Shown here piece after piece: positions 1-49,217 of a DNA stretch of 64,000 nt. The first letter of the stretch is position 1, and the number at the start of each line of letters is the position of its first letter. Where the stretch lies: the NCBI RefSeq assembly GCF_004010195.1, contig NC_057719.1, positions 38,376,758 through 38,440,757 on the forward strand, read 5' to 3'. The notes beneath the pieces are model-generated. The model made no database searches. It had not been told where the DNA came from and saw nothing but the letters and a program-made list of their open reading frames with translations. The stretch is from Chiloscyllium plagiosum (lineage: Eukaryota). A program made the position numbers and the translations under genes.

Positions 1-293
1 CGCCTTCCTAACCTGAGATCTTCTTCCCGACCTCTCCGCCCCCACCCCAGTCTGGCCTATCACCCTCACCTTGACCTCTTTCCACCTATCGCATTTCCGA
101 CGCCCCTCCCCCAAGTCCCTCCTCCCTACCTTTTATCTTAGCCTGCTGGACAAACTTTCCTCATTCCTGAAGAAGGGCTTATGCCCGAAACGTCAATTCT
201 CCTGTTCCCTGGATGCTGCCTGACCTGCTGCGCTTTTCCAGCAACACATTTTCAGCTCTGATCTCCAGCATCTGCAGACCTCACTTTCTCCTC
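1..293 (+). mobile_element. Penelope-like element 3' end (family A) with hammerhead motif at 163-198
   Basis: Same terminal repeat as the GIY-YIG-bearing copy at 31833-32535. Confidence 0.85.
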
Positions 294-359
294 AAAGATT
301 TTTACTTTTGACCCTCATATACTGTCTGCCCACTGCCCTTGGTTTATAATTAAAATGGA

Positions 360-1810
360 GAGGAATAGAGAGCAGTTATTTTGGGATTCAAAGGAGTTAT
401 ATAATGCAGTTCCTCAGGGGTCAGCCCTAGAAACAATGCTTGTCTGGATATATATTCATAGCCTAGATGTAAATGCACAGGGAACAATTGCAAAATTTGC
501 AGACACAAGATGCAAGTATGATGACTGTGATGAGGATAGTGATAAAGTTCAAGCTGGTTGACTGGGCAACCATGAAATTCAATGCAGAGAAATGTAAGAT
601 GATGCATTTTGGTAACAAGGATGGGGAGAAAAAAATAAAAAAAAGACAATTCTGAAAGGGATGCTGGAACAAATACTTTAGGGTTCACATGCATAAAGAT
701 CATTTATTATAAGAGGACTTTGGATATAACAGTCAGAATACAATGCTTCAGTTATAGAAGGCTGAGATCACTCAAGTTAGAAATAGGTTTTATTTTTCAT
801 GTGTACTTAGGCAGAGGGATAGAGGAGTATAGGGAAACATTTACAACGTCTCCATTCACAGCACCACCTTAGGTACAAGGTACCTAGAGGCAAAATCTGA
901 GGTGAGGAGTAGAAAAGTAAGTTAAAAGTTCAACATTACAGTTCTTGTCAGTATGAAGTAGGAAATAAGGAATAAAGTTAAAAGGTCCAAATTACATTCC
1001 TTCTTTAACCGTGGGCCTGCAGTTGCTCCACACTGGCTCGCCCCACAAGTGTCTCTCCCCTGCGCTGGGTTTGATCTCTTGAGCCCGCGCCTTCAAACTG
1101 CCATCTCACCACCAGCCACCATCCAGATTCACCAGCCACCTCACCCTAGTTGCCAGATTTCTGCCCGGGTACATCAACTGCCTCGTGGCCAACTGACAAA
1201 GTCTCCGCTCTGGACCTCCAGCTGCTGCCGTTGCCATGTCTGCCTCCGTGACCGAGCTCTCTGCAGATTGTAGGACAAGCTCCAGCTCAGGAACCCTACT
1301 TCACCGCCATCTTGGAACTGCATAATCTTGAATATTATGCACAGTTTTGGTTGTCTTTTTTAAGGAAGGATGTAAACACATTGAAGGTGGTTAAAGCACC
1401 TTTACTAGATTGATATCTGCAATGAACAAAATATCTTTTAGGAAAGGTGGGACAGACTGGGCTTGTGCCACTGGAGTTTAGAAGAACAAGGGTGGACTTG
1501 ATTGGACTGTGTAAGATCCTAAATGGTCTTGACACTAGGGGACACTATTTTAAGATTAAGGGTTACTGTTTCATGACAGAGATGAGAAGATTGTTTTTCT
1601 TGGAGGGTTGTGCAACTTTGGAACTTTGCCTCAGAAGGTGGTGGAGGTGAAGTCATTAAATATTGTTAAGACAGTGACAGATTGTTTCTTATTAAACAAA
1701 TTGTGGATCTCAGGGGTAAATGAGAATTTGAGAAATAAACTGATCAGCCATGGTTTAATTGAATAGTGCAGCAAGTTCAAGGGGCTGAATAGTCCACTCC
1801 TATTCTTACT
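360..1810 (+). mobile_element. Decayed CR1 LINE RT/3' fragment, split by an insertion at ~775-1325
   Basis: AVPQGSAL, KFADT, MKFNAEKCKMMHFG, then LEYYAQFW and RRTRVDLI after the insertion. Confidence 0.75.
775..1325 (-). mobile_element. Non-coding interspersed element with 5' CAAGATGGCGG motif and LINE-like tail; partial second copy at ~13560-13730 (+)
   Basis: Interrupts a CR1 reading frame; 840-950 matches the reverse complement of 13560-13680. Confidence 0.55.
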
Positions 1811-2317
1811 TTGTATGGTCATAAGTTGTTGAGAATGACAGGATGGCTCAAGAAAATAGTTAAAGAAGCATCTTGATGTTTGTAAACACAGGTATGAAGT
1901 ACAAAAGTTATAATTAAACTTGATGAAATACTGGTTCATCCACAATTGGAATATTGTGTCTAATTCTGAGCACCACATTATTAGAGAGGATTTTAGAGAG
2001 GGTGCAGAAAATATTTATGAAAATGGTTTCAGGATTTATATGCATAAGTAAAGGGGGTAGGGATGTCCTCCTTTAAGAAGAGAAAAAAATGGCAAGATTT
2101 GAATGAATTGTTCAGAATCATGTAGTGTCCAAACAGAGAAACTGTTGCCATTGGTGGAAGGGCAGCACTTTCAGAAACTTTTTGTATGAAAACCAGCAGT
2201 AGTATGAGGAATACTTACATTTGGTGAGAATTAGGATTTTAAATGCAACATCTGATAGTGTGATAGAGGCAGATACAAGTAGGAGGGATTTTCATTAGTG
2301 TCAGTAGCAGTGGTTAG

Positions 2318-4049: not shown

Positions 4050-4980
4050 CATCTCTCATTACCAATTCCAATCCTTTTCCCAGTAACCGCCCTTGGGCTG
4101 AATCAACCAGTCTTCTATGATCTCCTACTCTACTCCATCACAAATATCATCAACTTTCACCATTGTAAAGTTAGCCTTAATTGCATCTGTCTCAGTCCAT
4201 CTCCTCTTGAAGCCCTGACCCACACCTTCATCTTCGAAGGGAAAGTGAGGACTGCAGATGCTGGAGATCAGAGCTGAAAATGTGTTGCTGGAAAAGTGCA
4301 GTAAGTCAGGCAGCATTCAAGGAGCAGGAGAATCGACATTTCCTGAAGAAGTGCTTATGCCCGAAACGTCAATTCTCCTGCTCCTTGGATGCTGCCTGAC
4401 CTGTTGCGCTTTTCCAGTAACACATTTTCAGCCCACACCTTCATCTCCAAACTGAAGTCTTCCGGTGCTTTCTTGGCATCCCTCAAATCTTCAGCTTTCA
4501 ACTCAACTGAACCTGTTGCCTGCATCCTATCCTCAGTCCCATTCACCCATTGTCACTGTTCTTGCTCACCTATCTGGCTTCTACCTCCTAACACTCAAAA
4601 TTAAATTGTTCTTCATGTGTGTAAACACACTTCCTTGCCTCTCCCCTTCCTATGACTGTACCTCATCCAACATGACAACTCTTCTGAAATTCTACATTCT
4701 TCAAACTCTGACTTTGCATGACACCCACTCCCACTTTATTCATTTCACCATTGGCATACCTGCTTCAATCATCTAGATTCAACACTCTGGAATTCTCTCC
4801 CAAAACCACTCTGTTACTTTACTCCTCTCCCTTCTTTTACCACAGTATATCTGATTTAAAAAGTATATCTATTTGACCAAGTTTTAGTTACCCCTGCCAA
4901 TATTTGGCTATGATTCATTTTTTTGTCCAAATATTGCTTCTCTGAAGTGTCATAGGTTGTTTTACTGCATTTAACCTGCA
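4050..4980 (+). mobile_element. Old L2-like LINE ORF2 3' fragment, interrupted by a PLE fold-back
   Basis: Degenerate ...HTFISKL..., SPIVTVLAHL.WL..., LWNSLP motifs typical of the L2 C-terminus. Confidence 0.6.
4239..4431. mobile_element. PLE terminal-repeat fold-back mini-insertion (family A)
   Basis: Two inverted copies of the terminal repeat; TSD cccacaccttcatct at 4219-4233 and 4432-4446. Confidence 0.85.
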
Positions 4981-5588: not shown

Positions 5589-5676
5589 TACTTACCTCTT
5601 GATGGAGAGTTCATCCTCGGTCATGAAGCTGGATTGGCTGCCAGTGATGGTCAGAGTGTACTGGGATGTGAAAGAG
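5589..5676 (+). CDS. AMN: AMN exon (exon 4 equivalent): [29 protein letters not shown]
   Basis: tttag|TAC ... AGA G|gtac; 88 nt; resembles human LLPLDGELVL..G.GF segment. Confidence 0.93.
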
Positions 5677-8600
5677 GTACGCTATCATATCACTTCCATG
5701 TTTTATTTTAAAGAAGCAAATTCCCTAAAGCCTTTTAAAGTCAATGTCCATCATAACCTTGTTCCTAATACAGAAACATTTCCATGCTCTAACGTCAATT
5801 ATACAGAGTCATAGATAGAGTCATAGAGATGTACAGCATGGAAACAGACCCTTCGGTCCAACCCGTCCATGCTGACCAGATATCCCAACCCAATCTAGTC
5901 CCACCTGCCAGCACCCGGCCCATATCCCTCCAAACCCTTCCTATTCATATACCCATCCAAATGCCTNNNNNNNNNNNNNNNNNNNNNNNNNNNNNNNNNN
6001 NNNNNNNNNNNNNNNNNNNNNNNNNNNNNNNNNNNNNNNNNNNNNNNNNNNNNNNNNNNNNNNNNNNNNNNNNNNNNNNNNNNNNNNNNNNNNNNNNNNN
6101 NNNNNNNNNNNNNNNNNNNNNNNNNNNNNNNNNNNNNNNNNNNNNNNNNNNNNNNNNNNNNNNNNNNNNNNNNNNNNNNNNNNNNNNNNNNNNNNNNNNN
6201 NNNNNNNNNNNNNNNNNNNNNNNNNNNNNNNNNNNNNNNNNNNNNNNNNNNNNNNNNNNNNNNNNNNNNNNNNNNNNNNNNNNNNNNNNNNNNNNNNNNN
6301 NNNNNNNNNNNNNNNNNNNNNNNNNNNNNNNNNNNNNNNNNNNNNNNNNNNNNNNNNNNNNNNNNNNNNNNNNNNNNNNNNNNNNNNNNNNNNNNNNNNN
6401 NNNNNNNNNNNNNNNNNNNNNNNNNNNNNNNNNNNNNNNNNNNNNNNNNNNNNNNNNNNNNNNNNNNNNNNNNNNNNNNNNNNNNNNNNNNNNNNNNNNN
6501 NNNNNNNNNNNNNNNNNNNNNNNNNNNNNNNNNNNNNNNNNNNNNNNNNNNNNNNNNNNNNNNNNNNNNNNNNNNNNNNNNNNNNNNNNNNNNNNNNNNN
6601 NNNNNNNNNNNNNNNNNNNNNNNNNNNNNNNNNNNNNNNNNNNNNNNNNNNNNNNNNNNNNNNNNNNNNNNNNNNNNNNNNNNNNNNNNNNNNNNNNNNN
6701 NNNNNNNNNNNNNNNNNNNNNNNNNNNNNNNNNNNNNNNNNNNNNNNNNNNNNNNNNNNNNNNNNNNNNNNNNNNNNNNNNNNNNNNNNNNNNNNNNNNN
6801 NNNNNNNNNNNNNNNNNNNNNNNNNNNNNNNNNNNNNNNNNNNNNNNNNNNNNNNNNNNNNNNNNNNNNNNNNNNNNNNNNNNNNNNNNNNNNNNNNNNN
6901 NNNNNNNNNNNNNNNNNNNNNNNNNNNNNNNNNNNNNNNNNNNNNNNNNNNNGTGACTATCGATGATACAAATATCTCAGCAAGAGGCCCAGCAATCACT
7001 TCTCTAGCTTCCCACAGAGTTCTCGGGTACGCCTGATCAGATCCTGGGGATTTATCCACCTTTATGTGTTTCAAGACATCCAGCACTTCCTCTTCTGTAA
7101 TCTGGACATTTTGCAAGGTGTCACCATCTATTTCCCTACAGTCTATATCTTCCATATCCTTTTCCACAGTAAATGCTGATGCAAAATACTCATTTAGTAT
7201 CTCACCCATTTTCTGCGGCTCCGCACAAAGGCCGTCTTTTTGATCTTTGAGGAGCCCTATTCTCTCCCTAGTTACCCTTTTGTCCTTGATGTATTTATAA
7301 AAACTCTTTGGATTCTCCTTAATTCTATTTGCTAAAGCTATCTCATGTCCCCTTTTTGCCCTCCTGATTTCCCTTTTAAATATACGACTTCATTTATACT
7401 CTTCTAAGGATTCACTTGATCTATCCTGTCTATACCTGACATATGCTTCCTTTTTTTTCTTAACCAAACCCTCGATTTCTTTAGTCATCCAGCACTCCCT
7501 ATATCTACCAGCCTTTCCTAACAGGAATATTCCTTCTCTGGATTCTCGTTATCTCATTTCTGAAGGCTTCCCATTTTCCAGCTGTCCTTTTACCTGCGAA
7601 CAGCTGCCCCCAATCAGCTTTCAAATGTTCTTGCCTAATACCATCTCCAGTTTAGAACCTCAACTTTTAGATCTGGTCTATCCTTTTCCATCATTATTTT
7701 AAATCTAATAGAATTATGGTCGCTGGCCTCAAAGTGCTCCCCCACTGACACCTCAGTCACCTGCCTTGCCTTATTTCCCAAGAGTAAGCCAAGTTTTACA
7801 CCTTCTCTAGTAGGTACATTCACATACTGAATCAGAAAATTTTCTTGTACATACTTAACAAATTCCTCTCCATCTAAACCCTGAACACTATTGCAGTCCC
7901 AGTCGATGTTTGGAAACTTAAAATCCCTTACCATAACCACCCTATTTTTCTTACAGATAGCTGAGATCTCCTTACAAGTTTGTTTCTCAATTTCCCTCTG
8001 ACTATTGGGGGGGGGGTCTATAATACAATCCCAATAAGGTGATCATCCTTTTCTTATTTCTCAGTTCCACCCAAATAACTTCCCTGGATGTATTTCTGGG
8101 GATGTCCTCCCTCAGCACAGCTGTAATGCTATCCCTTATCAAAAATGCCACTCCCCTCCCTCTCTTGCCTCCCTTTCTATCCTTCCTNNNNNNNNNNNNN
8201 NNNNNNNNNNNNNNNNNNNNNNNNNNNNNNNNNNNNNNNNNNNNNNNNNNNNNNNNNNNNNNNNNNNNACAGGAGTGTTGTAGTGAAGTTTATTATACAC
8301 ACTGTAACACAGGAGTATTGTAGTGAAGTTTATTATACACACTGTAAGACGGGAGTGTTATAATGAAGTTTATTATTCACACTGTAACACAGGAGTGTTG
8401 TAGTGAAGTTTATTATACACAGTGCAACACATGAGTCTTATGGAGACTGGGCGCCTCCTAGCAGAGCGCTTTAGGGAACATCTCCGAGACACCCGCACCA
8501 ATCAACCACATCGCCCAGTGGCTCAACATTTCAACTCCCCCTCCCACTCTGCCGAGGATATGGAGGTGCTGGGCCTCCTCCACCGCCGCTTCCTCACCAC

Positions 8601-11600
8601 CAGACGCCTGGAGGAAGGACGCCTCTTCTTCCGCCTCGGAACACTTCAACCCCAGGGCATCAATGTGGATTTTAACAGTTTCCTCATTTCCCCTTCCCCC
8701 ACCTCATCCTAGCTTCTAACCTCCAGAAACTCGATCCCCTGACCTGTCCCCCCTGCCCCGCTCCTTTTCCACCTATCCACTCCACCCTCTCTTCCCTGAC
8801 CTATCACCTTCATCTCCTTCCCCACTGACCTATTGTACTCTATGCCACTCTCTCCCCACCCCCACCCTCCTCTAGCTTATCTCTCCACGCTTCAGGCTCT
8901 CTGCCTTTATTCCTGATGAAGGGCTTTTGCCCGAAACGTCGATTTTGCCTGTCCTCGGATGCTGCCTGAATTGCTGTGCTCTTCCAGCACCACTAATCCA
9001 GAAAGAAGTACATATCACTCTATTAAAGGCCATTTTTGCTCCTTCCCAATCTACAGACCCAGAAAATAACACCGTCTTATTCCTCTACAAACACTGCCCC
9101 AGGTTACATTAATAGCTATGGCTTATATTTTAAATTTAATCAAGAGGCATATCTCCAAAAACATATAATTAAGAAAGAACCTACTCAAACTCACTACTGC
9201 AGATTCTCTGTAGGCCACACTTAAAACTAAATTAACTTATCTGATTCTGTGTTGTGAACTTTGCCCAACAGTTCCTCCAAGATTAGTTGTGAATTTCACT
9301 GTTTGCTAATTTTCCCAGATGCACTCCGATGTCCAGCGATACACGAATTCAAACAGCAAAGGCAGTAACTGTAGGTTCTCTCTCTCTCTCTCTCTCTCCT
9401 GCAATGACCTCACCATGTGTTTCCTTCTTTAACATATTTTAATTCTAAAACTTTGCAAAAGCATAGCTAATTATGTACACTGGTAACCAATTTGCTATCA
9501 GCAGGAAGAATACAAAATGTCAGACAAAGTGTACTTTTAAGCTAAAGCTGTCAAAATTCTATCCATCTCACAAGCTAAAGATAACCAATATCTATCCCTG
9601 CTCTACAGATTTCTGGGAAACATAATTTTGGCTTTGATATTTTTATCTCTCCTGACTCCAGCGGTTGACCCGTGGATTCCTTTAGTGTTCCTAGTTCTGG
9701 ATTACAATTTTCTGACAATTTACTTTCTGCTTCTTTTTTTATCAATGAATTCTTGCACTTGAGATGTAACCCCTGGCAATTTTTTTAAACCTGTAATTTG
9801 CACTCAACGCTTATTGGCTTTTTATGCATTAGGTGCTCTTAGTGTATGAAGCCTTTATTTTTTTTACAAGACAACCAGTTCAATCACCGCACCTTAATCT
9901 CCACACCCTTCAAAGGGCAAAATAAGTCTTTGTTCTTGTAATCCTTCACAGTGTTTTTTTGCATGTTTTAGTAAATCAATCCAGTGGCAAACATATTTTC
10001 AAAGAACAATAAGAATGCACAATGGGTCTTGCTACACTGAAAAAAAGGGAAAGATAGGTAAAGTATTTGTCTTACTTTCACATGAAGCAAATACACCATC
10101 GTACATGCAGTCTATTCTTTCCGCATTTTCACAGGTTTGAAATCAAGATTGCAACTTGAAATTTTTTTCCAAAACTTCAAAATGTGCAACTTCTACCTTC
10201 CTTCAGGTTGCTCCTTTCTCCAGTAGTCTTCGGTCTTAACGTAATCTCAAATTTATCTTCGGGAATGATTCAAATCTGTCACAAATCCTTCCAATGATAA
10301 GGGTCTCAAGCTAAATGCATTCTCAAATAAGTGTCACCCATCTATTAGGTGCATTGGCGCAAATTTTATGAAAATCACCATTGTGCACAACAATCGTCTC
10401 TCAAATAAGCTTTTACGCTTGAAAGATAGGGTCATCCAACACTGATGTTACCTCAGAAATTCCAGTTAAGGCAGACTGAAATGATTGTCTAGGATTTTAT
10501 TTAATGACTGTTAGCCACTCGATAGCTCAGAATATTTAACATTCATACTAAGTTCCCAAGTGGGAAACACTCAATGGAACAATTAATTTTAAGACATTAA
10601 CCCTGAAGTGCTAAGATGACGTGGTCCTTTTGTTCACCTGCAGGTGAGGATATCACTTTCAAAGACCCTAACCAGTATAAATGGTATAATCCCAAGTATT
10701 GGCAGGTTTTATCAATGAGTGACCTGGAAAATAAGAATTACCTGTTCACCTTGGATGAAGAAAGTGTTCCCTGCCAACATGATGATGTCATTTTTCGACC
10801 TGAAACATCTTTCCATGTGGACCTGGACAGTGATATACAAAATGTCAATGTTAAAACCATTTCTTTAATGAATAGGGTGAGTCTTCCACTTCTTCAAATG
10901 CTGTGTTTTGATCAGTCCTTTGATCCATACCATCCACATATTCAAAAGTGAAATAATGTTTGTGATTTGCAGAAAACTCTTTTGAGAAAAATAACAAATA
11001 ACCTCAGGCTATTTTTCAAAAGGTCTAATGCATCCACCTGAACAGGCCTGTTTTATCAAGTCCTGTGAGACAGAACTGCCTTTAGTAGAACTGACAATAG
11101 GTCTTCGAGGTACATTTGACTCATGGCTGCCATTGAAAATGTAAATTTGTTTTCTATGACACTCCTTCCTGCCACTTGATGTTATCTTCATGTTCATTGG
11201 AGTTTCTGAAAACTGGTTTATGTGAATTCCTAGGCTGTCAGTATTTTGAATACATTAATCAATGCGAAATGTCATGTCCTTAACTATTGTCCGTTGCCCA
11301 TTGCGATGATATGGTTAAATATTTCATTTTTCATCATAGACGTTTACAAGCAATGAAGTATTTGCTGAGTACATGTGGTCAAATACTGGAAAATTACAGT
11401 TCCAAGGAAATGGCTCGATCACTGTGACCAATGCCAAGTGTAAGGATAAATCTGGCTGTGATTGTGGTAACTTTGGTGTAAGCATCTAACTCAAACCAAA
11501 TTACTGTGCTAATCTTAGATCTGTGAAGCATACATTTTCCAAATTCCATGAAGAAATAGTTATTTAGACCATGCTTTCTTAAAATTGAGAGAAGACAATA

Positions 11601-35600: not shown

Positions 35601-38600
35601 CAATTGTCAGGCACCAATCTAAGTGCACCAGCGTGCATCCGAATACAGCAGTTGGCTTCTTGCTGTGACTTGGTTGGCTGATGGGCAGGCATTGAGCACA
35701 ATGCAGCAGCTCAAATCTCTGCTCCCATCTATGTCCAATTGCCATGATGTCATGATTTTGCCCTCGTGATTTTGAATATTGCATCTTAAGGCAATAACAA
35801 ACAAAATCTGATGATTTCTTCTACAGAATCATGGTTCCATTATGCCTCATCTGTTTAAATAAATATTTTAAGTTTGACAATGAAGAAACTATTGAAAACG
35901 GCTTCAGCAATTTGATGTTTGGTTCACCAACCAACCTGCCGCAAGTAAGTCTCTAAAAATCTGATCCTTTCCATTGTGAATAGTAAAGGATATTTGAAGG
36001 ATGCTCCAAGCTTTAACCAAATAAGCTGTGAAGGAGAACAGTATTTCATTAACAAGCTGAGTCTTCACATGTACTTGTTTCAAGCTAGTTCTTAAATGGG
36101 GAGTTTCCTCAGAGTATGAGACAGGATACTAGAGATCATTACAAAAGATCAGAAAAAAACAGTTTAGTTGTTGGGGAAGTGAAGAAGAAAGCTGTAACCC
36201 TGTATTTCCCAAGGCCAATCCACCTAAACTGCATATCTTTGGACCAATCTCCCTTTCTTCCTGTAACTCTGCACATGTGTTCCTATTTAATTAATCATTC
36301 AGTACCGTCTTGAGTGCCTCAGTTGGACCAACTTCCACCATGCTTCCAAACAGTGCATTCCATCCCCTAACTACTTGTTGAAAGAGAAAGATTTTTCTCA
36401 TCGAGCATTTGCTTCTTTTGCAAAATACTTTCAAACTAGTTCTTGGTCCATTTACAGGTGGGAGCAGGTTCTGTCTGATCCACTCTGAAATGAGCCCTCG
36501 TGATTTTGAAAACGTCAATTCCATCTCCTCTTCGCCTTCCTCTTTTCGATGGAAACAGTCCCAACTTCTCCAATGTTTCCTCTTAACTAAACTGTCTCAA
36601 TGCTGGATCCATTCTTGTAATCCTCTGCTGCAAACTCCCCAGTGAGTTCTCATTCATCCTTCCTTTATCATAGGCAGCTAGGCTTCCCTGCAACATGGCC
36701 TCACCTCTGAGCTAATTAAATTGTTGTCAGACATCTTTGTCCATCGACTGTTTAGGCAGCGGTTGGGGGGGAGCCATAAAGATCCTTTGTTGGTCCTATC
36801 CCACCCACTTTCACTTGCTACTGCAAAAGCTCATGAAAATTTAATGGGAACTAATTCATTGCTTTTTCATTATGAAATGTGACGTATATTTCAAAATTAA
36901 TTATCTATGTAAATTAATAATTCATGCCTGAAACCAATTTATGGACATTTTCACATTATAAATATTAATACTTAAGCGAACATGTTTATCTTGAAAGTTT
37001 CTGAAATTTTATTAAAATCATCACAGTACTTTTCTTCCGAAAAGCTAATATTTATAGCAAAACTAACAGAAAAATAAATGTTGCTTATAAAATGACATTG
37101 TTATTGCTTTTGCTTCTGATGACTTGTACCCCACAAAGGGAGTTGTTCCAGTTGTGTGATGTGAAGCAAATGGTGGTGATGACAATTCTGGCCTTTTCTC
37201 TATTGTGGCCTTAGCCATGATAGTGTACATCAGAGATAAACATTGTGGGTCAGGCCGAGGACGCTTGCAGATTACCAGTGTCCCACAAGCTACATGCTGA
37301 AAACAACAAATCTAATACTATTACCGTTATCAATTCCCAACTTCTGAATTTCAGTGAAGTCATTGTTTGCCTGAGACAAGAACATCACACCCTGACAAAA
37401 TTTTGCTCATTAAATAGGTGGTAATGCAAGGTTGGTGAGAAGATGGTGTCACACTGCAGTCACCCTCAGCCCTCACACCTCCTGTTCTCGTTTAGGATTA
37501 ATTTAGTTCTCGGCAGGTGACTGCCTGACTAAATGTATCTCAGCAACACTGGTATTTGACAGTGGGTTTGCATGATATTCATGATTGATGTAGATGAGAA
37601 TTTGAGAGAGATGATAAGTAAGGTTGTGGATTAGATAAAGATTAGCTGGGGATAGGGGTGGCAGTGAGCAGCAAGATATTAGGTTACAGGAGGATATAAT
37701 TGCATTGTCAGATGAACAGATCTGAGCAGATGGGAATGAAATATGATAAACCTGATAAATAAGAGCTAATGTATTTTGGAAGAAGGAACAAGACAAGACA
37801 GCACTCAATGAAAAACAAGGCACTAGAAAGCTCACCGGTACAGAGGGATCTTGAGGTGCTTGTTCAAAGATCCCTCAAGATGGTAAGACAGGTTAATAAA
37901 GTAGTTAAGGAAGCATATGGGGCACTTCCCTTTATCAGTCATGGCACAGATCATAAGCACAGGGAGATTATGTTGGAGCTGAACAGAACTTTGGTTGGGC
38001 CACAGCTGGAGTACTGTGTGCAGTTCTGGTAACCGCACTATAGGAAGAATGTGACTTCTTTGGATGGGGGTGAAAAGGAAATGTTGACCAAGATATTATC
38101 TGGGATGGTGGATTTCAGTTTTGACGAGAAGCTGGAAAAACTCAGGTTGTCTTCTTTAGAGCAGAGGAAGTTGAGGGGAGATCTAATTGAGGTGTATAAG
38201 ATTATGAAGATGAATAGAAAGCAGCCGTTCCGTATTGCTATTGAACAGTCACCTTCAGGAAACCTATTGAGAAATTTTAAAAATTATCAGAGTTTTGACA
38301 GAGCAGGCTGAAAGAAACTATTTGTTCTGCCAAATTGATATTCCCACAAGTGGGAAGTTGTGTGTGGACCCTGTGGAGATTGGAGAGGTGCTAAACGAGT
38401 ATTTCTCATTGGTTTTCACTCAGGAAAAGAAGAATATTGTAGAGGAGAAGAATGAGATATGAGTTGTTAGACTAGAAAGGATCAAGGTTAGTAAGGAAAA
38501 TGTGTTATCAATTCTAGAAGGAGTGAACAGATGGGACAGATGGGATTTATCTGAGGATTCTCTGGGAAGCTAGGGAGGAGATGGCGGAGACTTTGGCTTT

Positions 38601-41600
38601 GATTTTTGAGTCATCATTGTCAACAGGTTTAGTACCAGAGGACTGAAGAATTGCAAATGTTGTGTCCTTGTTCAAAAAGGGCAGTAGAGGTAACCCAGAT
38701 AATTATAGACCTGTTGTAGGAAAAGTTTTGAAAGGATTATAAAAGATAGGATTTAAAATAATCTAGCAAGCAACAATTTGAAGTCAGATAGTCAACAAAG
38801 TTTCGTCAAAGGCAAGTCATATCTCACAAACCTCACTAAGTTTTTTGAGAAGGTGACCAAGCATGTAGATGAGAGTAGGGCAGTTGACATGGTATACATG
38901 AACGTCAGTAAAGCTTCGATAAGGCTGTTGGAGAAAATGCAGAGGCATGGGATTGAGGGTGATTTAGCAGTTTGGATTAGAAACAGGCTTTCTGAAAGAA
39001 GTGGTGGTTGATGGAAAATATTCAGCCTGGAGTCCGGTTCTCATTGGAAAGAAGGAAGCTAAGAGGGGATTTGATAGAGACATACAAGATTAGATTACAG
39101 TGTGGAAACAGGCCCTTCAGCCCAACAAGTCCACACCGACCCGCCGAAGCGCAACCCACCCATGCCCCTACATTTACCCCTATACCCAACACTACGGGCA
39201 ATTTAGCATGGCCACTTCACCTGACCTGCACATCTTTGGACTGTGGGAGGAAACCGGAGCACCCGGAGGAAACCCACGCAGACACGGGGAGAATGTGCAA
39301 ACTCCACACAGTCAGTCACCTGAGGCGGGAATTGAACCCAGGTCTCTGGCGCTGTGAGGCAACAGTGCTAACCACTGTGCCACCGTGCCGCCCATGGTGA
39401 TCAGAGGATTAGATAGGGTAGACAGTGGAAGTCTTTTTCCTAGGATGATGACATCAGCATGTACGAGGGGGCATAACTACAAATTGAGACGTGATAGATT
39501 TAAGACAGATGTCAGAGGCAGGTTCTTTGCTCAGAGAGTGGTAAGGGCATGGAATGACCTGCCTGCCAATGTAGCTAACTCAGCCACATTAGGGAGATTT
39601 AAACAATCCTTGGATAAATACATGGATGATGATGGAATAGTGTAGGGGAATGAGCTTAGCTTAGTTCACAGGTTGGCGCAACATCGAAGGCCGAAGGGCC
39701 TTTTCTGTGCTGTATTTTCTATGTTCTAACCAAAGCAACCAAAGAAGATATACTGAAAACAATTTGCATCAGAGTTAAAGGAGAAAAGAGAATCTTTTCC
39801 AAACAGAGCATTGTCAAGTTCTGGAATGCACTACAAGAATGGAAGCATTGGATTCTGTTTCAGGCTCACCAGGCAGCCCCTGTCCTTGATTTGATTTATT
39901 TATTGTCACATGTACTGAAATACAGTGAAAAGCTTTGTTTACCAACAGTACAGGCAGATCATAGTAAGCAAGGACATACAGGTCATAGGTTGAACAAAAA
40001 CTTAGAGGTATAAATTTACATCACACAGTGTGTGCACTAGGCAAGATCAACATTAGCAAGATCAGCATTATTTGAATTTAGAGAGTCCATTCATCAATCT
40101 AATAACAGCTGGGAAGAGATTATTCCTGAACCTGGTGTTTAAGCTTCTGTATCTTCTCCCTGATGGAAGATATTTACTGGGGTGATCATTACTGGGGTGC
40201 AATGGGTCTTAAATGATGTTGGTCGCCTTTCCGCAGCGGTGAGCCATGTAAATGGAGTCCCCCATTTTTTTGTAGTTATGTCACCATTGTGTTACCAGAC
40301 TATAGGGGGCTGCTCTCTCATTACAGAAAAGCAACTGATTGTGATTTAACCTGACAGCCAACAGACCTCAGGCAAGGGAAGAGGGTGAAAAGAAGAGTCC
40401 TTCATGGAAACCTCAAACTGGTGATGGGAATTGAACCTACGCTGTTGGCATCACACTGCTCTGTAAACCAACAATCCAGTCAACTGAGTGGAGTTCATGG
40501 ATGGGGGGTTGGCTTCTGTGATGGTCTGGGCACACAACCTTCTGTAATTTCTTACGGTCCTGGGAAGAGCACTTGCTGAACCAGGCCATTATGCAACCAG
40601 ACTGAATGCTTCAATGGTCTATCTATAGAAGTTAGTGAGGGTCTTTATGGACATGCTAAATTTTCTGAGTCACCTGAGGAAGAAGGGCACATTGTTGTGC
40701 CTTCTTGTGTTGTTGGCTATCATCACGCTAAGGAACTTGTGGCTCTCACCCTCTCAACCTCAGTTCCATTGATGTAGATGGGACGGTGTTCTCCTCGTTT
40801 TTTTCTGAAGTCAATGATCAATTCTTTAGTTTTGTTGACAGTGAGAGAGAGTTTATTCTCATTGCACCATGACATCAGGCCCTCTAACTCCTTTCTGTAT
40901 TCTGACTCATCATTGTTAGATATCTGTCTTACTGTGGTGGTGTTGTCAGCAAACGTGTAGGTGTCTGCACAGTGTCTTCATTGAGGGCCTTGTGCAATGG
41001 TTGCTTCCAATATGTGTGCTTCATGGTAGAGACCAAATGACTACAACAGATCAAGAAGGATATTTGTCAGTGATTGCATTTCAATCCAACCAGATTGTAT
41101 AGGAGAACTTTAATAGGAGAACTAGATGTGTAATTGATGATAACAAATTTGCATGATTTAGAATGTGGGAATAAATTGAACAGCTGTTTAAAAGAGCTAG
41201 CACAGGTGCAATGGTTGAATGGCCTCTTCTTGTGCTGTAAGATTGTATGAACATAGAAATTAGGAACTGAAGTACATCACTCAGTCCTTCAAACCTGCTC
41301 CACCATTCAATAAGATCATGGCATTCAGAATTCCTCATTCCCATCTATCGCCGATAACCTTACCTTCTTGTTGGGAAGGGAATCCATCCATCTCCATCTT
41401 AAGGATATTCATTGAGGCAGAGTCCCAAGAAAGAAAGGAATTCCCTTCATCTCTATCCTAAGTGATTCTGAATTTGCAGCTGTGTGAACATGTTCCTTGG
41501 AGGGAACATAACCTCCCAGCTTCTACCCTTCAGAATTGTGTAGGTTTCATTGAGATCACCTTCTAGAGCTTATTACCTAATTTATTTGGTTTCTTATCTT

Positions 41601-42270
41601 GGATACCCCCCTCAACCCAGGGACCAATCTGTGAATATTCACCGTATTGCCTCCAATGCAAATATATCCTTCCTTAGTTAGGGAGACCAAATCTGTGTAC
41701 AGTACATCACATGCGGTCTCACCAAAGACCTGCTGCACTTTTCCAGCAACACATTTTCAGACCTGTACAATTACGGTGTACTTTCTTATACTTGTAGTAC
41801 AATCACCTGCAATAAATGTGAGAAACAAAATGTAACAGCACAGATTGCAGTCCCTCCTGTTCTGTCTGGCACAGGCTCTAGCACAGCTGAAGATCAGGAG
41901 ATTAGTGTGGTCTGGCCTGTGATTCAGTTGCATTATAGGATAACTCAACTCGTGTTAGTTTTTCTTTTGCATGTGTGTAATATTATCAGAGGCTTTGAAA
42001 CCAACTGAACTAAGGCAAGTAGAAGATAAATCCAGGACTCAAGATAAATATTTTAGAGCACTGCAATAGAAACGGGCATGTCAACATTTATTCAGTAGCC
42101 CAATGATAATAGTCAACATGTACATGGGTAGCCTGATTCAGATTAACTTCTTTGTGTTTTTTTAGGATTTTAATGGTGCCTGTTCTGGAGGACAAGTAAT
42201 AAATTTTGTCGCAAGTCAAAATTTCACTAACCCAGCCTTTGAGCAACACTTTGGTGAACAAGATTGTTAA
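5589..42270 (+). CDS. AMN: Amnionless, 5'-partial spliced CDS: join(5589-5676,10644-10876,11340-11477,15350-15458,20343-20425,22474-22660,33592-33760,35827-35944,42166-42270)
   Basis: Nine AG/GT-bounded exons with compatible phases sum to 1230 nt, one open frame ending in TAA. Translation has AMN hallmarks: [22 protein letters not shown] cysteines (GCDCGN...[13 protein letters not shown]), TM helix, FTNPAF. Confidence 0.96.
5805..8187 (-). mobile_element. CR1 LINE (major family), antisense in AMN intron 4; contains a gap
   Basis: APE motifs ([17 protein letters not shown]), [15 protein letters not shown], 3' tail of ctctatga repeats. Confidence 0.92.
8269..8421. repeat. 40-bp minisatellite, about 4 visible units next to a gap
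   Basis: Unit acaggagtgttgtagtgaagtttattatacacactgtaac repeats with few changes. Confidence 0.9.
8441..9003 (+). mobile_element. Penelope-like element 3' fragment: GIY-YIG endonuclease C-terminus plus terminal repeat
   Basis: [13 protein letters not shown]...PVAQHFN...[10 protein letters not shown] (ORF 8422-8712), then hammerhead motif. Confidence 0.9.
8909..8944 (+). ncRNA. Minimal type I hammerhead ribozyme motif (PLE family A type)
   Basis: CTGATGA-A-GGGC-TTTT-GCCC-GAA-ACGT-C: core boxes, perfect stem II, palindromic ACGT in place of helix III. Confidence 0.75.
10644..10876 (+). CDS. AMN: AMN exon (exon 5 equivalent): (G)[20 protein letters not shown]...[18 protein letters not shown]...ISLMNR
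   Basis: ctgcag|GT GAG ... AGG|gtgagt; 233 nt; lies within ORF 10616-10951. Confidence 0.96.
11340..11477 (+). CDS. AMN: AMN exon (exon 6 equivalent): [46 protein letters not shown]
   Basis: catag|ACG ... GGT|gtaagc; 138 nt, phase 0/0. Confidence 0.95.
11840..12170 (+). mobile_element. Ancient Deu-domain-type SINE relic
   Basis: Degenerate ...ctgtttgaaaaggagtagcaagttctc...ttgctgtgtgcag, shared with other relics in the window. Confidence 0.45.
12172..12332. mobile_element. PLE terminal-repeat fold-back mini-insertion (family A)
   Basis: Inverted arms meet inside the hammerhead; TSD ggatatcttgagggta at 12156-12171 and 12333-12348. Confidence 0.85.
12740..12898 (+). mobile_element. PLE 3' terminal fragment with mutated hammerhead motif
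   Basis: ctgatgaagggcatatacccaaaaacgtcgattctcctgctcctcggatgctgcc. Confidence 0.75.
13760..14982 (+). mobile_element. CR1 LINE, 5'-truncated (RT to 3' tail), AMN intron 6
   Basis: KFADDT, RDLGVQ, QFWSP motifs; tail gactctat. Confidence 0.92.
15350..15458 (+). CDS. AMN: AMN exon (exon 7 equivalent), VWC domain: [36 protein letters not shown]
   Basis: ttgcag|AAC ... TGT G|gtgagc; 109 nt. Confidence 0.95.
15755..18672 (+). mobile_element. CR1 LINE with ORF1 esterase remnant, APE and RT; two gaps; AMN intron 7
   Basis: [11 protein letters not shown] (SGNH esterase of CR1 ORF1), [28 protein letters not shown], 3' tail. Confidence 0.93.
19570..19850 (-). mobile_element. Ancient Deu-domain-type SINE relic
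   Basis: Reverse complement shows a tRNA-like head (ggttcaaacaccactccagg) and ggctgacagctcc..tgcaatactgag segment. Confidence 0.5.
20343..20425 (+). CDS. AMN: AMN exon (exon 8 equivalent): (G)[27 protein letters not shown]
   Basis: tttcag|GT GCC ... ATG|gtatgt; 83 nt; resembles human [28 protein letters not shown]. Confidence 0.95.
22074..22425. mobile_element. Tc1/mariner (Tigger/pogo-like) MITE
   Basis: TA TSDs (22072-73, 22426-27); imperfect TIRs CAGGTgcACAATCCTTTATCCGAAAT / ATTTTGGATAAAAGGTTGTctACCTG; no transposase ORF. Confidence 0.85.
22474..22660 (+). CDS. AMN: AMN exon (exon 9 equivalent): [17 protein letters not shown]...[32 protein letters not shown]
   Basis: attag|GAC ... CGA G|gtaac; 187 nt. 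Confidence 0.94.
23459..24358 (+). repeat. 5' LTR (contains a PLE insertion at 24152-24338)
   Basis: Starts TGTTATGAAGATG; collinear with 31308-31826. Confidence 0.9.
24152..24338 (-). mobile_element. Probable PLE 3' end (family C) with degenerate hammerhead at 24188-24228, nested in the 5' LTR
   Basis: TSD ggtttaccttgt at 24140-24151 and 24339-24350; minus strand gcgCTGAGGAtgtcacctagacaggggtcGAAAtatctgc; ends in (caa)n. Confidence 0.7.
24363..24388 (+). promoter_or_regulatory. Primer binding site, tRNA-Pro type (degenerate)
   Basis: TGGAGGCTCattgtCAGGATTTGAAC resembles the complement of the tRNA-Pro 3' end (TGGGGGCTCGTCCGGGATTTGAAC), just after the 5' LTR. Confidence 0.7.
24445..25730 (+). 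mobile_element. CR1 LINE with large internal deletion, nested in the LTR element leader
   Basis: APE region jumps at ~25285 (LANTIKEN) straight to the ORF2 C-terminus ([10 protein letters not shown]) and 3' tail. Confidence 0.9.
25790..26312 (+). mobile_element. CR1 LINE 3' fragment (second family), nested in the LTR element leader
   Basis: [17 protein letters not shown]...RGHNYKLRG; same family as 38345-39730. Confidence 0.88.
31298..31826 (+). repeat. Polypurine tract and 3' LTR (31308-31826)
   Basis: aagggggaagg precedes tattatgaagatg; lacks an internal block present in the 5' LTR. Confidence 0.9.
31833..32535 (-). mobile_element. PLE (family A): GIY-YIG fragment with inverted terminal repeats and two hammerhead motifs (31892-31927 minus, 32407-32441 plus)
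   Basis: ORF 32066-32425 (LAERFREH...PVAQHFN); TSD gtaaaagtata at 31821-31831 and 32536-32546. Confidence 0.92.
32580..32928 (-). mobile_element. HE1-like V-SINE
   Basis: Reverse complement of tRNA head, V-domain and CR1 tail. Confidence 0.85.
33592..33760 (+). CDS. AMN: AMN exon (exon 10 equivalent) with transmembrane helix [24 protein letters not shown]
   Basis: tgcag|GG GCC ... ATA AG|gtgaaa; 169 nt; ORF 33576-33764. Confidence 0.93.
33923..34092. mobile_element. PLE terminal-repeat fold-back mini-insertion (family B), partly deleted
   Basis: Inverted and direct pieces of the 49095-49217 terminus; imperfect TSD taggctaaaccag / tagaccaaaccag. Confidence 0.7.
34933..35470 (-). mobile_element. 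CR1 LINE 3' fragment
   Basis: ORF 35104-35421 ([19 protein letters not shown]). Confidence 0.88.
35827..35944 (+). CDS. AMN: AMN exon (exon 11 equivalent): (R)[39 protein letters not shown]
   Basis: ttcttctacag|A ATC ... CAA|gtaagt; 118 nt; phase 2/0 bridges the neighbouring exons; GFSNLMF aligns to the first GFxNPxF motif. Confidence 0.85.
36280..36670 (-). mobile_element. Old CR1 3' fragment
   Basis: [24 protein letters not shown]. Confidence 0.6.
37630..38230 (+). mobile_element. CR1 RT C-terminal fragment
   Basis: [34 protein letters not shown]. Confidence 0.85.
38345..39730 (+). mobile_element. CR1 LINE (second family) with internal deletions and a nested SINE
   Basis: [16 protein letters not shown]; jump at ~39040 to [12 protein letters not shown]; tail ttctatgttcta. 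Confidence 0.88.
39088..39393 (-). mobile_element. Well-preserved HE1-like V-SINE nested in CR1
   Basis: CpG-rich head ggcggcacggtggcacagtggttagcac (reverse strand); interrupts the CR1 YKM-IRG segment. Confidence 0.9.
39886..40960 (-). mobile_element. Rex1/Babar-like LINE 3' fragment with an insertion at ~40260-40490
   Basis: Minus strand [11 protein letters not shown]...[23 protein letters not shown]; tail cactgtatttcagtacatgtgacaataaa. Confidence 0.7.
41200..41790 (-). mobile_element. Old CR1 3' fragments abutting tail to tail
   Basis: 3' stem-loop/tail motifs on + (41200-41247) and - (from 41248). Confidence 0.6.
42166..42270 (+). CDS. AMN: AMN terminal coding exon: [34 protein letters not shown]
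   Basis: Strong polypyrimidine tract ...gtttttttag|GAT; FTNPAF motif; TAA at 42268-42270. Confidence 0.9.
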   Translation, partial: DFNGACSGGQVINFVASQNFTNPAFEQHFGEQDC

Positions 42271-46287: not shown

Positions 46288-47681
46288 AGACAAAGTGATG
46301 ACTACAGACGCTGGAGATCAGAGTTGAAGAGTGTGTTGCTAGAAAAGCACAGCCTGTCAGGCAGCATCTGAGGAGCAGGACGTTTTGAGCATAAGCTCTT
46401 CATCAGGAATGAAGGGGTGGACAGGGGGCTGAGAGATAAATGGGAAGGAAGTTGGACTGGTGGGAAGATAGCTGGGAATGCAATATGTAGATGAAGGTGT
46501 GGGAGAAGGTGATAGGTTGGAACGGAGGATGGAGTGGATAGGTGGGAAGGAAGCTGGACAGGTAGGACAGTTCAAGAGAGTGGTGCCGAGTTGGAAGGTT
46601 GGATCTTGGATAAGGTGGAGGGAGGGAAAATAAGAAAACTGGTGAAATCTACATTGATCCCATGTGGTTGGAGGGTGGAAGATGAGGCATTCTTCCTCCA
46701 GGTGTTGGGTGGCTAGAGTTTGGTGGTGGAGGAGGCCCCAAACCTGCATGTCCTTGGCAGAGTGGGAGAGGGAGTTAAAGTGTTTGGCCACAGGGTGGTA
46801 GGATTGTTTGGTGCAGGTGTCCCAGAGATGTTCTCTGAAATGTTCTGCAAGTTGGCGTCCTGTCTCCACAATGTAGAGGAGATCACATCAAGTGCAATGG
46901 ACGCAATAGATTATGTGTGTTGAAGTATAAGTAAATCTCTCTTGGATGTGAAAGGATCCTTTGGGGCCTTGGACGGAGGTGAGGGGGGAGGTGTGGACGC
47001 ATGTTTTGCACTTCTTGCAGTGGCAGGAGAAGCTGCCGGAAGGGTAGGTATGGACCTAACAAGGAAGTTGCAGAGGGAATAGTGTCTATGGAACACAGAT
47101 AGTAGTGGGGAGGGAAATATATCTCTGGTGGTGGGGTATGTTTGTGGGTGGCGGAGGTTGTTGGGATGGAAAGTGAGGACCGGGGGGTTCTGTCCTTGTT
47201 GTGATTGGAGGGGTGGAATTGAAGAGCGAGGTGCAGGAAGTGGAGGAGATGCACTGGAGGGCATGATCGACCATCTGGGAGGGGGAATTGTGATCCTTGA
47301 AGAAGGAGGCCATCTGGGATGTTCTGTGGTGGAAGTGGTCCTTCTGGGAGCAGATGCAGCGGAGGCAGAGGAATTGAGAATAAGGGATAGGGTTTTTACA
47401 GGAAGCAGGATGGGAGGAGGTATAGTCCAGGTAGCTGTGGGAGTTGGTGGGTTTGAAGTAGATGTCCGTATTGAGTTGGTTGCCGGAAATGGATCACCTT
47501 CACCCCCACCTTCATCTACCTATCACATTCCCAGCTACCCTCCCCCCCAGGCTCACCTCCTCCCATTTCTCAGCCCCCTTGGGCCACCCCCTCATTTCTG
47601 ATAAAGAGCTTATGCTCAAAATGTCGACCCTCCTGCTCCTCAGATGTTGCCTGACCGGCTTTTCCAGCACCACACTCTTCT
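46288..47681 (-). mobile_element. PLE: RT C-terminus plus GIY-YIG, with inverted terminal repeat at 47494-47681
   Basis: Minus strand KPTNSHSYLDYTSSHP...IPYSQFL; ETGRQLAEHFREH; near-perfect TSD aatgtgtagaaca / aatatgtagaaca (46275-87, 47682-94). Confidence 0.92.
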
Positions 47682-48261
47682 AATATGTAGAACAGTTCAA
47701 TTAGTTAACAGCTTTTGGCATTATTGACATTATATACCTGAAGAAAATTGACAAATGCATGACCAAATTCATGACAGAAGGTAGTGAAAATATCCTACTG
47801 GTCAGAATTCTGAAGGATATTTATCTGGATCATTGAAAGACAGTGATACAACTGATATTGGTAACATTAACTACATGGAAACCACATGTATTTTACCTGG
47901 TGGATATGGATTAATGACCAATTGCAGCACCACCAGTGTGTATGGACTGAACATGGTGACATTAATAAAGTCATCAAATTACTTAACAAAGCAGAACAGG
48001 TCAAGAATGCATATAAAACAGTCCAGGACTTACAATACACCCAGACAGATTCAATGCAATAGGAAACTTCAACGATAATACTGACTTGCATCTGAAAGAA
48101 GATGCAATTCCATGAATTAATTCACCCAGAAAGTGCAGTGTTCACACACGAGAGTTTGAAGACCAAGTTGGATGATACGGAATGTAATGGTATGGTGTTT
48201 TGTGTACATCAGTGTATAGACCATTAAGTTAACAAAATCCTAAAATTCTAAAATCCTAAAA

Positions 48262-49217
48262 CGTGTCAGATTGTGGACATGGATACCACTATTACGCGTG
48301 GGAACACCTCCCACCATGTACATGGCAGGTACTCATGTGACTCAGCCAACATTGTCTATCTTATACGTTGCAGGCAGGGATGCCCAGAGGCATGGTACAT
48401 TGGGGAAACTGAGCAAAGGCTACGACAACGGATGAATGGGCACCTCACAACTATCAACAGACAGGAGTGTTCCCTTCCAGTTGGGGAACACTTCAGTGGT
48501 CCAGGACATTCAGCCTCGGACCTTCGGGTGACCATCCTCCAAGGTGGACTTCGGGACAGGCAGCAGAGAAAAGTGGCNNNNNNNNNNNNNNNNNNNNNNN
48601 NNNNNNNNNNNNNNNNNNNNNNNNNNNNNNNNNNNNNNNNNNNNNNNNNNNNNNNNNNNNNNNNNNNNNNNNNNNNNNNNNNNNNNNNNNNNNNNNNNNN
48701 NNNNNNNNNNNNNNNNNNNNNNNNNNNNNNNNNNNNNNNNNNNNNNNNNNNNNNNNNNNNNNNNNNNNNNNNNNNNNNNNNNNNNNNNNNNNNNNNNNNN
48801 NNNNNNNNNNNNNNNNNNNNNNNNNNNNNNNNNNNNNNNNNNNNNNNNNNNNNNNNNNNNNNNNNNNNNNNNNNNNNNNNNNNNNNNNNNNNNNNNNNNN
48901 NNNNNNNNNNNNNNNNNNNNNNNNNNNNNNNNNNNNNNNNNNNNNNNNNNNNNNNNNNNGAAGTGAAACTAACATGGTATTCGAACAGATGAAAGACTCA
49001 ACAGACAAGACAATCAATTCTTCAATGTATAATTTCAGTTACATCACACTGCAAATTTTTGCTATAAATTCTGTATTACGATCGAGCCCTCCACAATCAC
49101 CTGATGAAGGAGCGTCGCTCCGAAAGCTAGTGTGCTTCCAATTAAACCTGTTGGACTATAACCTGGTGTTGTGTGATTTTTAACTTTGTACATCCCAGTC
49201 CAACACCGGCATCTCCG
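48262..49217 (+). mobile_element. PLE (family B): GIY-YIG domain and terminal repeat; contains a gap
   Basis: SCDSANIVYLIRCRQGCPEAWYIGETEQRLRQRMNGH; TSD aatcctaaaa at 48252-61 and 49218-27. Confidence 0.93.
49097..49133 (+). ncRNA. Minimal type I hammerhead ribozyme motif (PLE family B)
   Basis: cac-CTGATGA-A-GGAGC-gtc-GCTCC-GAA-AGCT-A-gtg: stem I cac/gtg, 5-bp stem II, palindrome AGCT. Confidence 0.75.

Follow-up and report, generated by a model that had tools for sequence, protein, structure and literature searches.

What a self-cleaving ribozyme does in the terminal repeat of a retroelement is the question raised by a 64,000-nt stretch of the genome of the shark Chiloscyllium plagiosum (here called the window). 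It carries six minimal hammerhead motifs that sit in the pseudo-LTRs of three families (A, B, and C) of Penelope-like elements (PLEs), most of them within the host gene amnionless (AMN) (Table 1). Passages of PMC2377424 see no obvious mechanism for the regeneration of pseudo-LTRs. Minimal hammerheads (min-HHRs) in the pLTRs of metazoan PLEs were described by Cervera and De la Pena (2014; PMC4209133), whose main text, from the abstract to the start of the methods, names no shark; the supplements may list sharks. The six motifs are copies of this known fold; they are expected in any PLE-rich genome. Our literature search, with most subscription papers, Repbase/Dfam, and supplements outside its scope, turned up no publication that describes PLE hammerheads in sharks or, for any PLE, a poly(A) site or a strong stop.

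Table 1. Hammerhead-bearing PLE copies and related features in the window (positions relative to C of CUGA are signed)
Feature	Position	Strand	Remarks
Family A (A1) minimal hammerhead	163..198	+	5'-truncated PLE stub ~39-291, sense in an AMN intron; stem I has lost its first pair
Family A head-to-head fold-back	4230..4432	both	+ arm 4340-4432, broken stem II; - arm 4230-4345 begins inside ribozyme
Host gene AMN	5589..42267	+	coding exons near 5589, 10643, 11340, 15335, 20336, 22474, 33582, 35825, 42166; first exons upstream of window
Family A (A2) hammerhead, intact	8909..8944	+	AMN intron, sense; element ~8438-9003; predicted cut after 8940
Family A fold-back	12171..12336	both	- arm, intact core 12274-12297; short + arm 12296-12336
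Decayed family A stub	12801..12904	+	GAAA box mutated
Family C (Poseidon-like PLE) stub	24147..24335	-	decayed hammerhead 24188-24228; antisense to AMN
Family A stub	31833..32365	-	end of GIY-YIG frame; intact hammerhead 31892-31927; antisense to AMN
Short family A arm	32407..32534	+	begins 3 nt before CUGA box; intact hammerhead 32407-32441
Older family-A-lineage element	46289..47680	both	- strand, RT remnant 46741-47493; inverted + arm 47493-47680; decayed hammerheads; past AMN stop
Family B GIY-YIG coding remnant	48258..48578	+	93% to 437-aa RT+EN frame P0016 of L035
TATAAA box (family B)	49063..49068	+	B-lineage subfamilies retain it at -38 to -40
Predicted transcription start	49093	+	A at -8, where the 5'-end pile-up has its outer wall; TATA box 30 nt upstream
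Family B hammerhead, intact	49097..49133	+	AGCU palindrome; predicted cut after 49129
ATTAAA hexamer and family poly(A) site	49141..49161	+	AATAAA in older subfamilies; poly(A) equivalents 49158 and 49161
GU-rich stretch and PLE tail	49162..49221	+	genomic copies end at +80..+87 or +119..+123

All six motifs proposed from the sequence alone were present at their positions and on their strands, and both predicted cut triplets (GUC ending at 8940 and CUA ending at 49129) were right. The core was intact in four of the six; the copy at 163 to 198 lacks the closing stem I pair (C opposite A). The original prediction also called family C degenerate, which holds for the decayed window copy (24188 to 24228) and not for the family, whose majority motif (49 copies) carries the palindrome ACGU and a stem II of 6 bp in which one pair is mismatched. 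Its listing of family A was incomplete, with further arms at 4230 to 4432 (a fold-back), 12171 to 12336, 12801 to 12904, 46289 to 46871, 47493 to 47680, and 55679 to 55771. The family B copy is not within the coding span of AMN, whose stop codon lies approximately 6.8 kb upstream of it. A sequence-blind descriptor search of 60 arbitrarily placed 10-kb stretches (573,598 non-N bases) returned 31 motif matches, far more than the 0 to 4 (mean, 1.5) found with the same descriptor in 10 first-order Markov controls. Scaling up these stretches gives an extrapolated genome-wide number of approximately 1.5 to 2 × 10^5 motifs. An Rfam scan (E ≤ 1) gave no hammerhead family match and three unrelated chance matches; the minimal form falls below the Rfam models.

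Family B has a 437-aa frame (at least 99 genome matches) that joins a reverse transcriptase (RT) match (RVT_1, E = 1e-5, below Pfam's cut-off) to a GIY-YIG-type part, i.e., a single ORF with a PLE-type RT plus GIY-YIG at the C terminus, as in EN+ PLEs. Family A carries a GIY-YIG-type frame upstream, whose EN part is 27 to 35% identical to the family B frame, and an EN-type (GIY-YIG-type) frame was read by eye in the flanks of family C. The Pfam search gave no GIY-YIG match for the PLE frames, and we name the domain from characteristic GIY-YIG motifs. Pseudo-LTRs, tails, and inverted 5'-truncated arms are present, as in EN+ PLEs. Non-LTR retrozymes are tandem 150- to 1,000-nt noncoding repeats with canonical hammerheads; this identity was rejected, since the window copies carry minimal hammerheads and are ends of coding PLEs, either dispersed or arranged as fold-backs, and not tandem repeats. 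Families A and B are provisionally assigned to the Neptune type from the Cys-rich RT-EN linker present in both (PMC8557442), and family C would be of the Poseidon kind by its layout. The passages on Neptune/Nematis-type EN+ PLEs in PMC8557442 and PMC3846280 describe the same Cys-rich RT/GIY-YIG linker (as in A and B), inverted 5'-truncated arms, and a 30- to 40-bp tail.

The proposal that these are minimal type I hammerheads with covarying stems was borne out. In a recount by structure, 66 of 70 stem pairs were kept across 10 families and subfamilies (shuffles: mean, 39.4; none of 10,000 as high); in a MAFFT alignment with four B-lineage rows shifted by one column, 64% of cells were paired, still above 500 of 500 shuffles. 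Core columns were identical in 9 to 10 of the 10 families and stem columns in 3 to 7, with the CUGANGA, GAAA, and NUH boxes conserved. The palindrome 15.1-16.1 replaces helix III, and reads ACGU in A (n = 96) and C (n = 49) and AGCU in B1 (n = 61) and B2 (n = 31); rare families have palindromes in decayed forms. Like the min-HHRs in the main text of PMC4209133, these are of type I without helix III beyond the palindromic 15.2-16.2, with an extra base between 9 and 10.1 and a G10.1-C11.1 pair, and they occur as many families per genome with covariation, mostly as single truncated copies and opposite-strand pairs. Unlike those, the shark stems are shorter (stem II, 4 to 6 bp; stem I, 3 bp, with U.U in family A), and the copies number approximately 10^5, compared with 4,000 to 9,000 in coelacanth and frog.

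The original prediction went further, holding that family-specific palindromes restrict dimers to the same family and that sense copies in AMN introns cut the pre-mRNA. We consider this very improbable. The palindromes of A (ACGU) and B (AGCU) do exist and are not the same, double-hammerhead structures of mixed pairs score less well (A-B, -1.9; A-C, +0.3 kcal/mol) than those of A-A (approximately -10) and B-B (-17.7), and dimer cleavage of min-HHRs has been published, though weak (main text of PMC4209133). However, only these two palindromes occur among the well-sampled families; ACGU is common to A and C, and B1/B2 and, assuming CpG-decayed palindromes, E/F/G are cross-compatible. Since A and C share a palindrome, any dimer selectivity would come from stem I, in which one of three pairs is compatible between A and C, which would keep them apart; on paper, full compatibility extends to several further pairs of families. 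RNAcofold never gave the double hammerhead as the best structure for any pair, and the active dimer lies 3 to 14 kcal/mol above two folded monomers (A and B). Dimer cleavage of PLE hammerheads has reportedly been treated by Lunse et al. in 2017. For the window hammerheads, self-cleavage is putative, and RNA reads neither start nor end sharply where the cut is predicted.

As for AMN, two intact sense copies do lie in its introns (8913 and 32410), but 23 kb and several exons separate them, and one of the two lies hidden within a fold-back. Among the five sense arms with a core, the claim that they act on the pre-mRNA is left with a single intact arm outside a fold-back: three carry damage (167, 4343, and 12812), the arm at 32410 is wholly paired in a 94-bp fold-back (94 nt with its inverted arm, 99%), and that at 8913 has a predicted inactive alternative fold. 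Sense arms with ribozyme sequence are not depleted (five sense and four antisense), nor do reads end sharply at the cut site. In tail-selected B1 copies, core changes (21/550) did not differ from those at other non-CpG bases (98/1,980; P = 0.31); B1 copies decay neutrally. Core decay exceeded non-core decay in B2-type copies (17/200 and 27/640), a difference that junction edges may cause, and fell below it in family A (39/1,030 and 315/4,120), a comparison confounded by mixed subfamilies. A RECK-type intronic hammerhead is a single locus, conserved better than neutral DNA, with canonical stems; the family copies here decay neutrally and have minimal stems. The window copies are likely mostly decaying leftovers with no effect on the AMN transcript.

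The family B pseudo-LTR has a definite layout (positions relative to the C of CUGA). The spacing of its TATA box (-38) to the ribozyme is preserved among B-lineage subfamilies while the spacer diverges. Downstream, a hexamer at +40 precedes a poly(A) site used in RNA reads at +57/+60, approximately 30 nt past the cut site. At matching places of one family B locus (L002), 835 (374 + 461) of 2,854 reads carried loose poly(A); the run is from a shark that may be another species (86/2,854 reads at 99% identity or higher), and many of the poly(A) reads may stem from few loci. The genomic DNA downstream of the site is not A-rich, and the reads are mostly sense and run through the cut site. In full-length elements, the farther of the two genomic end points (+119 to +123) is directly followed by the start codon of the ORF (ATG after +122 in L242 and L250). 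In ribozyme-selected arms, on which 3' ends were counted since tail-selected copies are biased, 101 of 116 reached +75 or beyond and none ended in an A-run. Family A has no canonical TATA box, and its top loose read ends included no poly(A).

The 5' ends of short copies form a wall at the upstream edge of the ribozyme. In family B, 32 of 63 lie at -11 to -2, compared with 0 of 31 at -21 to -12 (P = 8e-8; modes at -8 and -5), and in family A, 62 of 93 lie at -7 to +2, compared with 5 of 31 at -27 to -8 (P = 9e-7). The B junctions, sampled by exact pattern, are 97 of the first 100 tail matches on one contig (C1; three gap junctions dropped), while the A junctions, from random and flanking DNA, represent 142 copies kept of 179 and aligned to 37 clean references (those dropped were 7 gap junctions, 12 low-scoring arms of other families, and 18 arms whose loci had been picked for their long copies). 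Family C has no pile-up at the ribozyme (2/45 at -6 to -4). A small excess of family A ends at the cut site (+28 to +30; 7 versus 2.3 expected; P = 0.010) suggests that some templates may have been cut. A cap-copying signal is weak: G makes up six of nine nonreference bases at -8 in B (P = 0.012 versus genome composition), but it also precedes 14 of 42 control junctions, and 11 of 20 family B junctions continue with reference C; family A has no G excess (3/9 at -4). Splicing was rejected as the cause of the A wall, a 3' splice-site-like tract near -26 drawing 0 of 26 junctions at -27 to -18. A read-depth step near -10 was also rejected as start-site evidence because it is confounded by read length. 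Together with the poly(A) site, the wall at the ribozyme's 5' edge suggests that the short copies probably arose when the front end of uncut RNA was copied into DNA.

Two other sources of the wall have to be weighed against this. The wall could arise at the DNA or RNA-structure level (endonuclease cuts at AAT/ATT, microhomology in fold-backs, or RT pausing at the edge of the ribozyme) and not from the 5' end of the RNA, with long read-through tandem RNAs as templates. Inversions do make up 37 of 54 B junctions at -11 to +8 and 32 of 62 A junctions at -7 to +2; ATT/AAT occurs at both A peaks and the B -5 peak, the lizard PLE prefers 5'-ATT-3' (experiments in PMC11167929), and approximately half of the B copies that reach -11 continue upstream unbroken. 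Yet the wall is also present in non-inverted copies of both families (A, 30/60; B, 11/27 at -11 to -2 and 0 at -21 to -12), ATT motifs at -38 to -50 attract few junctions, and 30 nt upstream of the wall lies a TATA box that divergent subfamilies retain, so we regard this origin as unlikely. Still less probable is that the main templates are unit-length RNAs (possibly circles) that the ribozyme releases from tandem transcripts, as the main text of PMC4209133 proposes. The stems and core are kept across families, and besides the seven A copies noted above, at most 3 of the 97 B copies have their start at the cut or no more than 2 nt from it (read from junctions); but starts 30 to 37 nt upstream of the cut are far commoner (A, 62 versus 7; B, 32 versus at most 3). 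A cut linear template is unable to yield such starts, and with a circular template no stop would be expected at that point. Polyadenylated reads cross the cut site, and hammerhead mutants left insertion unaffected in vitro (assays in PMC11167929).

We therefore think it probable that the pseudo-LTR has an LTR-like U3-R-U5 layout, with a predicted start, and that the short copies are strong-stop-like copies of uncut RNA that decay neutrally and play no role in AMN. Family B RNA would start at -8, driven by the TATA box. Reverse transcription probably begins inside the 5' leader at the tail sites (approximately +84 and +122), as for the lizard PLE in vitro (PMC11167929), and would then copy back through the uncut ribozyme. 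Approximately half of the cDNAs would run off the RNA 5' end, to be inserted singly or as fold-backs; the remainder would extend into the 3' UTR and ORF, either by jumping to the repeated segment at the RNA 3' end or along a read-through tandem RNA. The ribozyme would be under selection only in master lineages, and it probably cuts slowly and only when assisted by the element's protein and/or another copy; cleavage would cost the RNA its cap or its poly(A) end.

One of the closest known systems is the Poseidon PLE of Anolis (Frangieh et al. 2024), in which, in the relevant parts of PMC11167929, internal RT starts make the tail and unprocessed RNA is the main substrate. As there, we found two tail-defining sites of the kind made by internal RT starts, evidence of an uncut template, and no RNA-seq ends at the cut; the Anolis ORF starts inside the ribozyme, while the family B ATG lies approximately 123 nt after the core. 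Cleavage in Anolis needed the element's protein, and it was dispensable for insertion in that single in vitro study; a search of the paper for the terms transcription start, strong stop, and template jump found no mention. In work on Neptune/Nematis-type EN+ PLEs (Craig et al. 2021, PMC8557442, and Arkhipova et al. 2013, PMC3846280), a rotifer pLTR was described with a putative TATA box plus Inr; the passages on these PLEs report no mapped poly(A) site and no 5' junction wall at the ribozyme. The family B pseudo-LTR resembles retroviral U3-R-U5 with minus-strand strong-stop transfer in a works-like comparison only. In a retroviral LTR, a TATA box lies upstream of a repeated segment bounded by the RNA start and the poly(A) site, and reverse transcription begins just downstream. 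Unlike retroviruses, PLEs have no tRNA primer site or integrase and are primed at nicked target DNA.

A bolder and rather doubtful possibility is that Neptune-type pseudo-LTRs are true U3-R-U5 units, with a TATA-driven start before the hammerhead, poly(A) addition after the second copy, strong-stop cDNA, and palindrome pairing of the hammerheads that joins the RNA ends for the repeat-rebuilding jump. If so, the ribozyme would be an end-joining and timing device and not a simple cutter. PLE tails supply poly(A) sites to shark transcripts, and the approximately 10^5 copies in the shark genome record where reverse transcription began and stopped. Their junctions point to one base as the RNA start, which, with the poly(A) site, makes the strong-stop-and-jump model directly testable.

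The window lies in a 3.56-Gb genome, and its host gene is amnionless (AMN): one exon is 94% identical to a bamboo shark protein, and tblastn placed the coding exons at -8378 to 42267 on the + strand. All six hammerhead motifs of the original prediction were present as described. A family-blind descriptor detected 31 motifs in 573,598 bases (60 arbitrary stretches) versus 0 to 4 in ten Markov controls, and a 32-base word from the family B tail had 23,827 exact occurrences (reversed-word control, 0). The window also contained additional family A arms, many in head-to-head fold-back form. The family C stub at 24147-24335 and the family A stub at 31833 each adjoin a copy of one shared other repeat (approximately 88% alike; 23642-24147 and 31500-31813), and long dispersed repeats that are 85 to 93% alike (5815-8130, 14004-18672, 24447-25727, and 52146-54755) are probably LINE fragments.

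Upstream of the family B copies, we found a 437-aa frame that contains a reverse transcriptase (RT) match (E = 1e-5) and a Cys-rich linker preceding a GIY-YIG-type domain. Family A copies carry an endonuclease end related to that of family B (27 to 35% identity), and the family C flanks, by eye, contain a Poseidon-type GIY-YIG end. On the basis of these coding remnants, we assign the hammerheads of all three families to the ends of Penelope-like elements (PLEs), with clade names taken from the motif and not from a tree. Two long family B elements with a leader and an ORF start (L242:3887-6627 and L250:3796-6514) both contain frameshifts or stops.

In 1.44 Mb of sampled DNA, which was enriched for these families, the descriptor had 294 hits; these fell into seven clusters with at least three members and several smaller ones. 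A structure-based count across ten families and subfamilies showed that 66 of 70 pairs in stems I and II and at the 15.2-16.2 position were kept. Shuffled pairing gave a mean of 39.4, and none of 10,000 shuffles reached 66, a value that is not a probability because related families have a common origin and three of the ten rows represent one copy each. Identity across the rows was 9 to 10 of 10 in core columns and 3 to 7 of 10 in stem columns. Among tail-selected copies of subfamily B1, non-CpG changes affected 3.8% of core versus 4.9% of other positions (P = 0.31), and all eleven core bases were retained in 37 of 55 copies; within-family selection on the ribozyme was not evident. Covariation among families, with no evident selection within them, indicates that the fold was maintained in the master elements and decays after insertion. 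Family A, the most abundant (e.g., 163-198 and 8909-8944), has the weakest stem I, in which the third pair is U.U, and its best predicted fold is an inactive shape where the palindrome is paired to the CUGA box. In the rarer family F (L037:6412-6450, L122:2295-2333, and L107), core position 3 is U and position 8 is A or G; U3-A8 is the covariant core described in Schistosoma PLEs, and CpG decay could yield the same pattern.

Contrary to the original proposal, the palindromes would not confine dimers to their own family: ACGU occurs in the family C majority motif as in family A (AGCU in B), subfamilies B1 and B2 are fully cross-compatible, and the rarer families F and G, and E with either, are likewise fully compatible if decayed palindromes are read as ACGU. 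In the established double-hammerhead model, as described in PMC4209133, one RNA's core must also form stem I with the other RNA. An A/C cross-dimer has compatible palindromes but keeps only one of three stem I pairs; dimer selectivity would thus be partial and set by stem I. The active dimer was predicted to be less stable than two folded monomers, by 9 to 14 kcal/mol for A and by 3 kcal/mol for B; the family C dimer energy was calculated with part of stem II omitted.

Sense arms with a core in AMN introns
Position	Strand	State of the ribozyme
167	+	lacks the closing pair of stem I
4343	+	stem II broken
8913	+	intact
12812	+	carries a mutation in the GAAA box
32410	+	intact, yet 36/36 bases paired with inverted arm

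An effect of the hammerhead copies on AMN is improbable, and nothing supports it. The suggestion that sense copies act on the AMN pre-mRNA does not hold: three of the five sense arms are damaged, one is buried in a fold-back, and reads on family A (both strands) from X21, a run of raw single-cell poly(A) RNA from a shark designated 'organism B' of which approximately 2% was read, neither began nor stopped abruptly at the cut site. Four antisense arms in AMN bear ribozyme sequence, and the family B copy lies 6.8 kb beyond the stop codon. Approximately 26 nt before the CUGA box, family A has a pyrimidine tract ending in AG that resembles a 3' splice site (e.g., 120-145 and 8870-8895); it is kept across subfamilies, and sense copies could serve as cryptic intronic acceptors.

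Element positions are numbered with the C of the CUGA box as 0. Among the 97 usable of the first 100 exact family B tail matches on one contig, 5' junctions per 10 nt at risk rose from 0.04 (+19 to +28) through 0.09 (+9 to +18) and 0.26 (-1 to +8) to 0.51 (-11 to -2), then fell to 0 of 31 at -21 to -12 (P = 8e-8 between the last two intervals) and approximately 0.04 further up. In family A, 62 of 93 junctions fell at -7 to +2 versus 5 of 31 at -27 to -8 (P = 9e-7), with a minor excess at the cut site (7 versus 2.3; P = 0.010). The wall persisted among non-inverted copies. Family C, at loci chosen for near-identity to one copy, had no pile-up at the ribozyme (2 of 45). The outer family B junction mode, -8, is an A located 30 nt past TATAAA; in divergent subfamilies, whose spacer differs, the TATA box is still found at -38 to -40, and in L185, a distant relative, it lies 30 nt upstream of a good match to the initiator consensus. 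The non-templated G expected of cap copying was only weakly suggested. In family C (L111-L140), TATAAA lies approximately 57 nt before the ribozyme (24250-24270, - strand), and 5' ends are dispersed and form one loose group between -90 and -113.

From X21, 2,854 reads matched the family B repeat, predominantly in sense orientation; of these, 374 had loose poly(A) at +57 and 461 at +60. These positions are 12 to 15 nt past ATTAAA/AATAAA in locally GU-rich, not A-rich, DNA. The polyadenylated RNAs traverse the ribozyme uncut, cut RNAs being invisible to this library. In shark RNA, the family B tail thus serves as a poly(A) site, at L002:2610-2613, which corresponds to 49158-49161 of the window. 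Of 116 ribozyme-selected genomic arms, none ended in an A-run and 101 reached +75 or more, with clusters near +84 and +122; in two long elements, the ORF ATG directly follows +122. The polyadenylated end therefore cannot be the source of the genomic 3' ends, which match internal RT starts within the 5' leader like those demonstrated for a lizard PLE (PMC11167929). Element identity and covariation are shown, as are the junction walls, the TATA spacing, use of the poly(A) site, and the tail ends; we infer that family B RNA would start at -8 and that reverse transcription would run off this RNA 5' end; longer copies may reflect a jump or a read-through template.

The shark ribozyme is the published minimal PLE hammerhead (PMC4209133, PMC8557442, PMC6765202, PMC6155905, PMC7229834, PMC3846280, and PMC2377424), and a retrozyme survey included one cartilaginous fish (bioRxiv 10.64898/2026.07.22.740005). 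Our literature search, with supplements and repeat databases outside its scope, found no paper on shark PLE hammerheads or on a PLE poly(A) site or strong stop. We conclude that the hammerhead motifs are real and of a known kind. The useful remainder is a testable LTR-like layout of family B, whose tail, present in >23,000 copies, may terminate many host transcripts.
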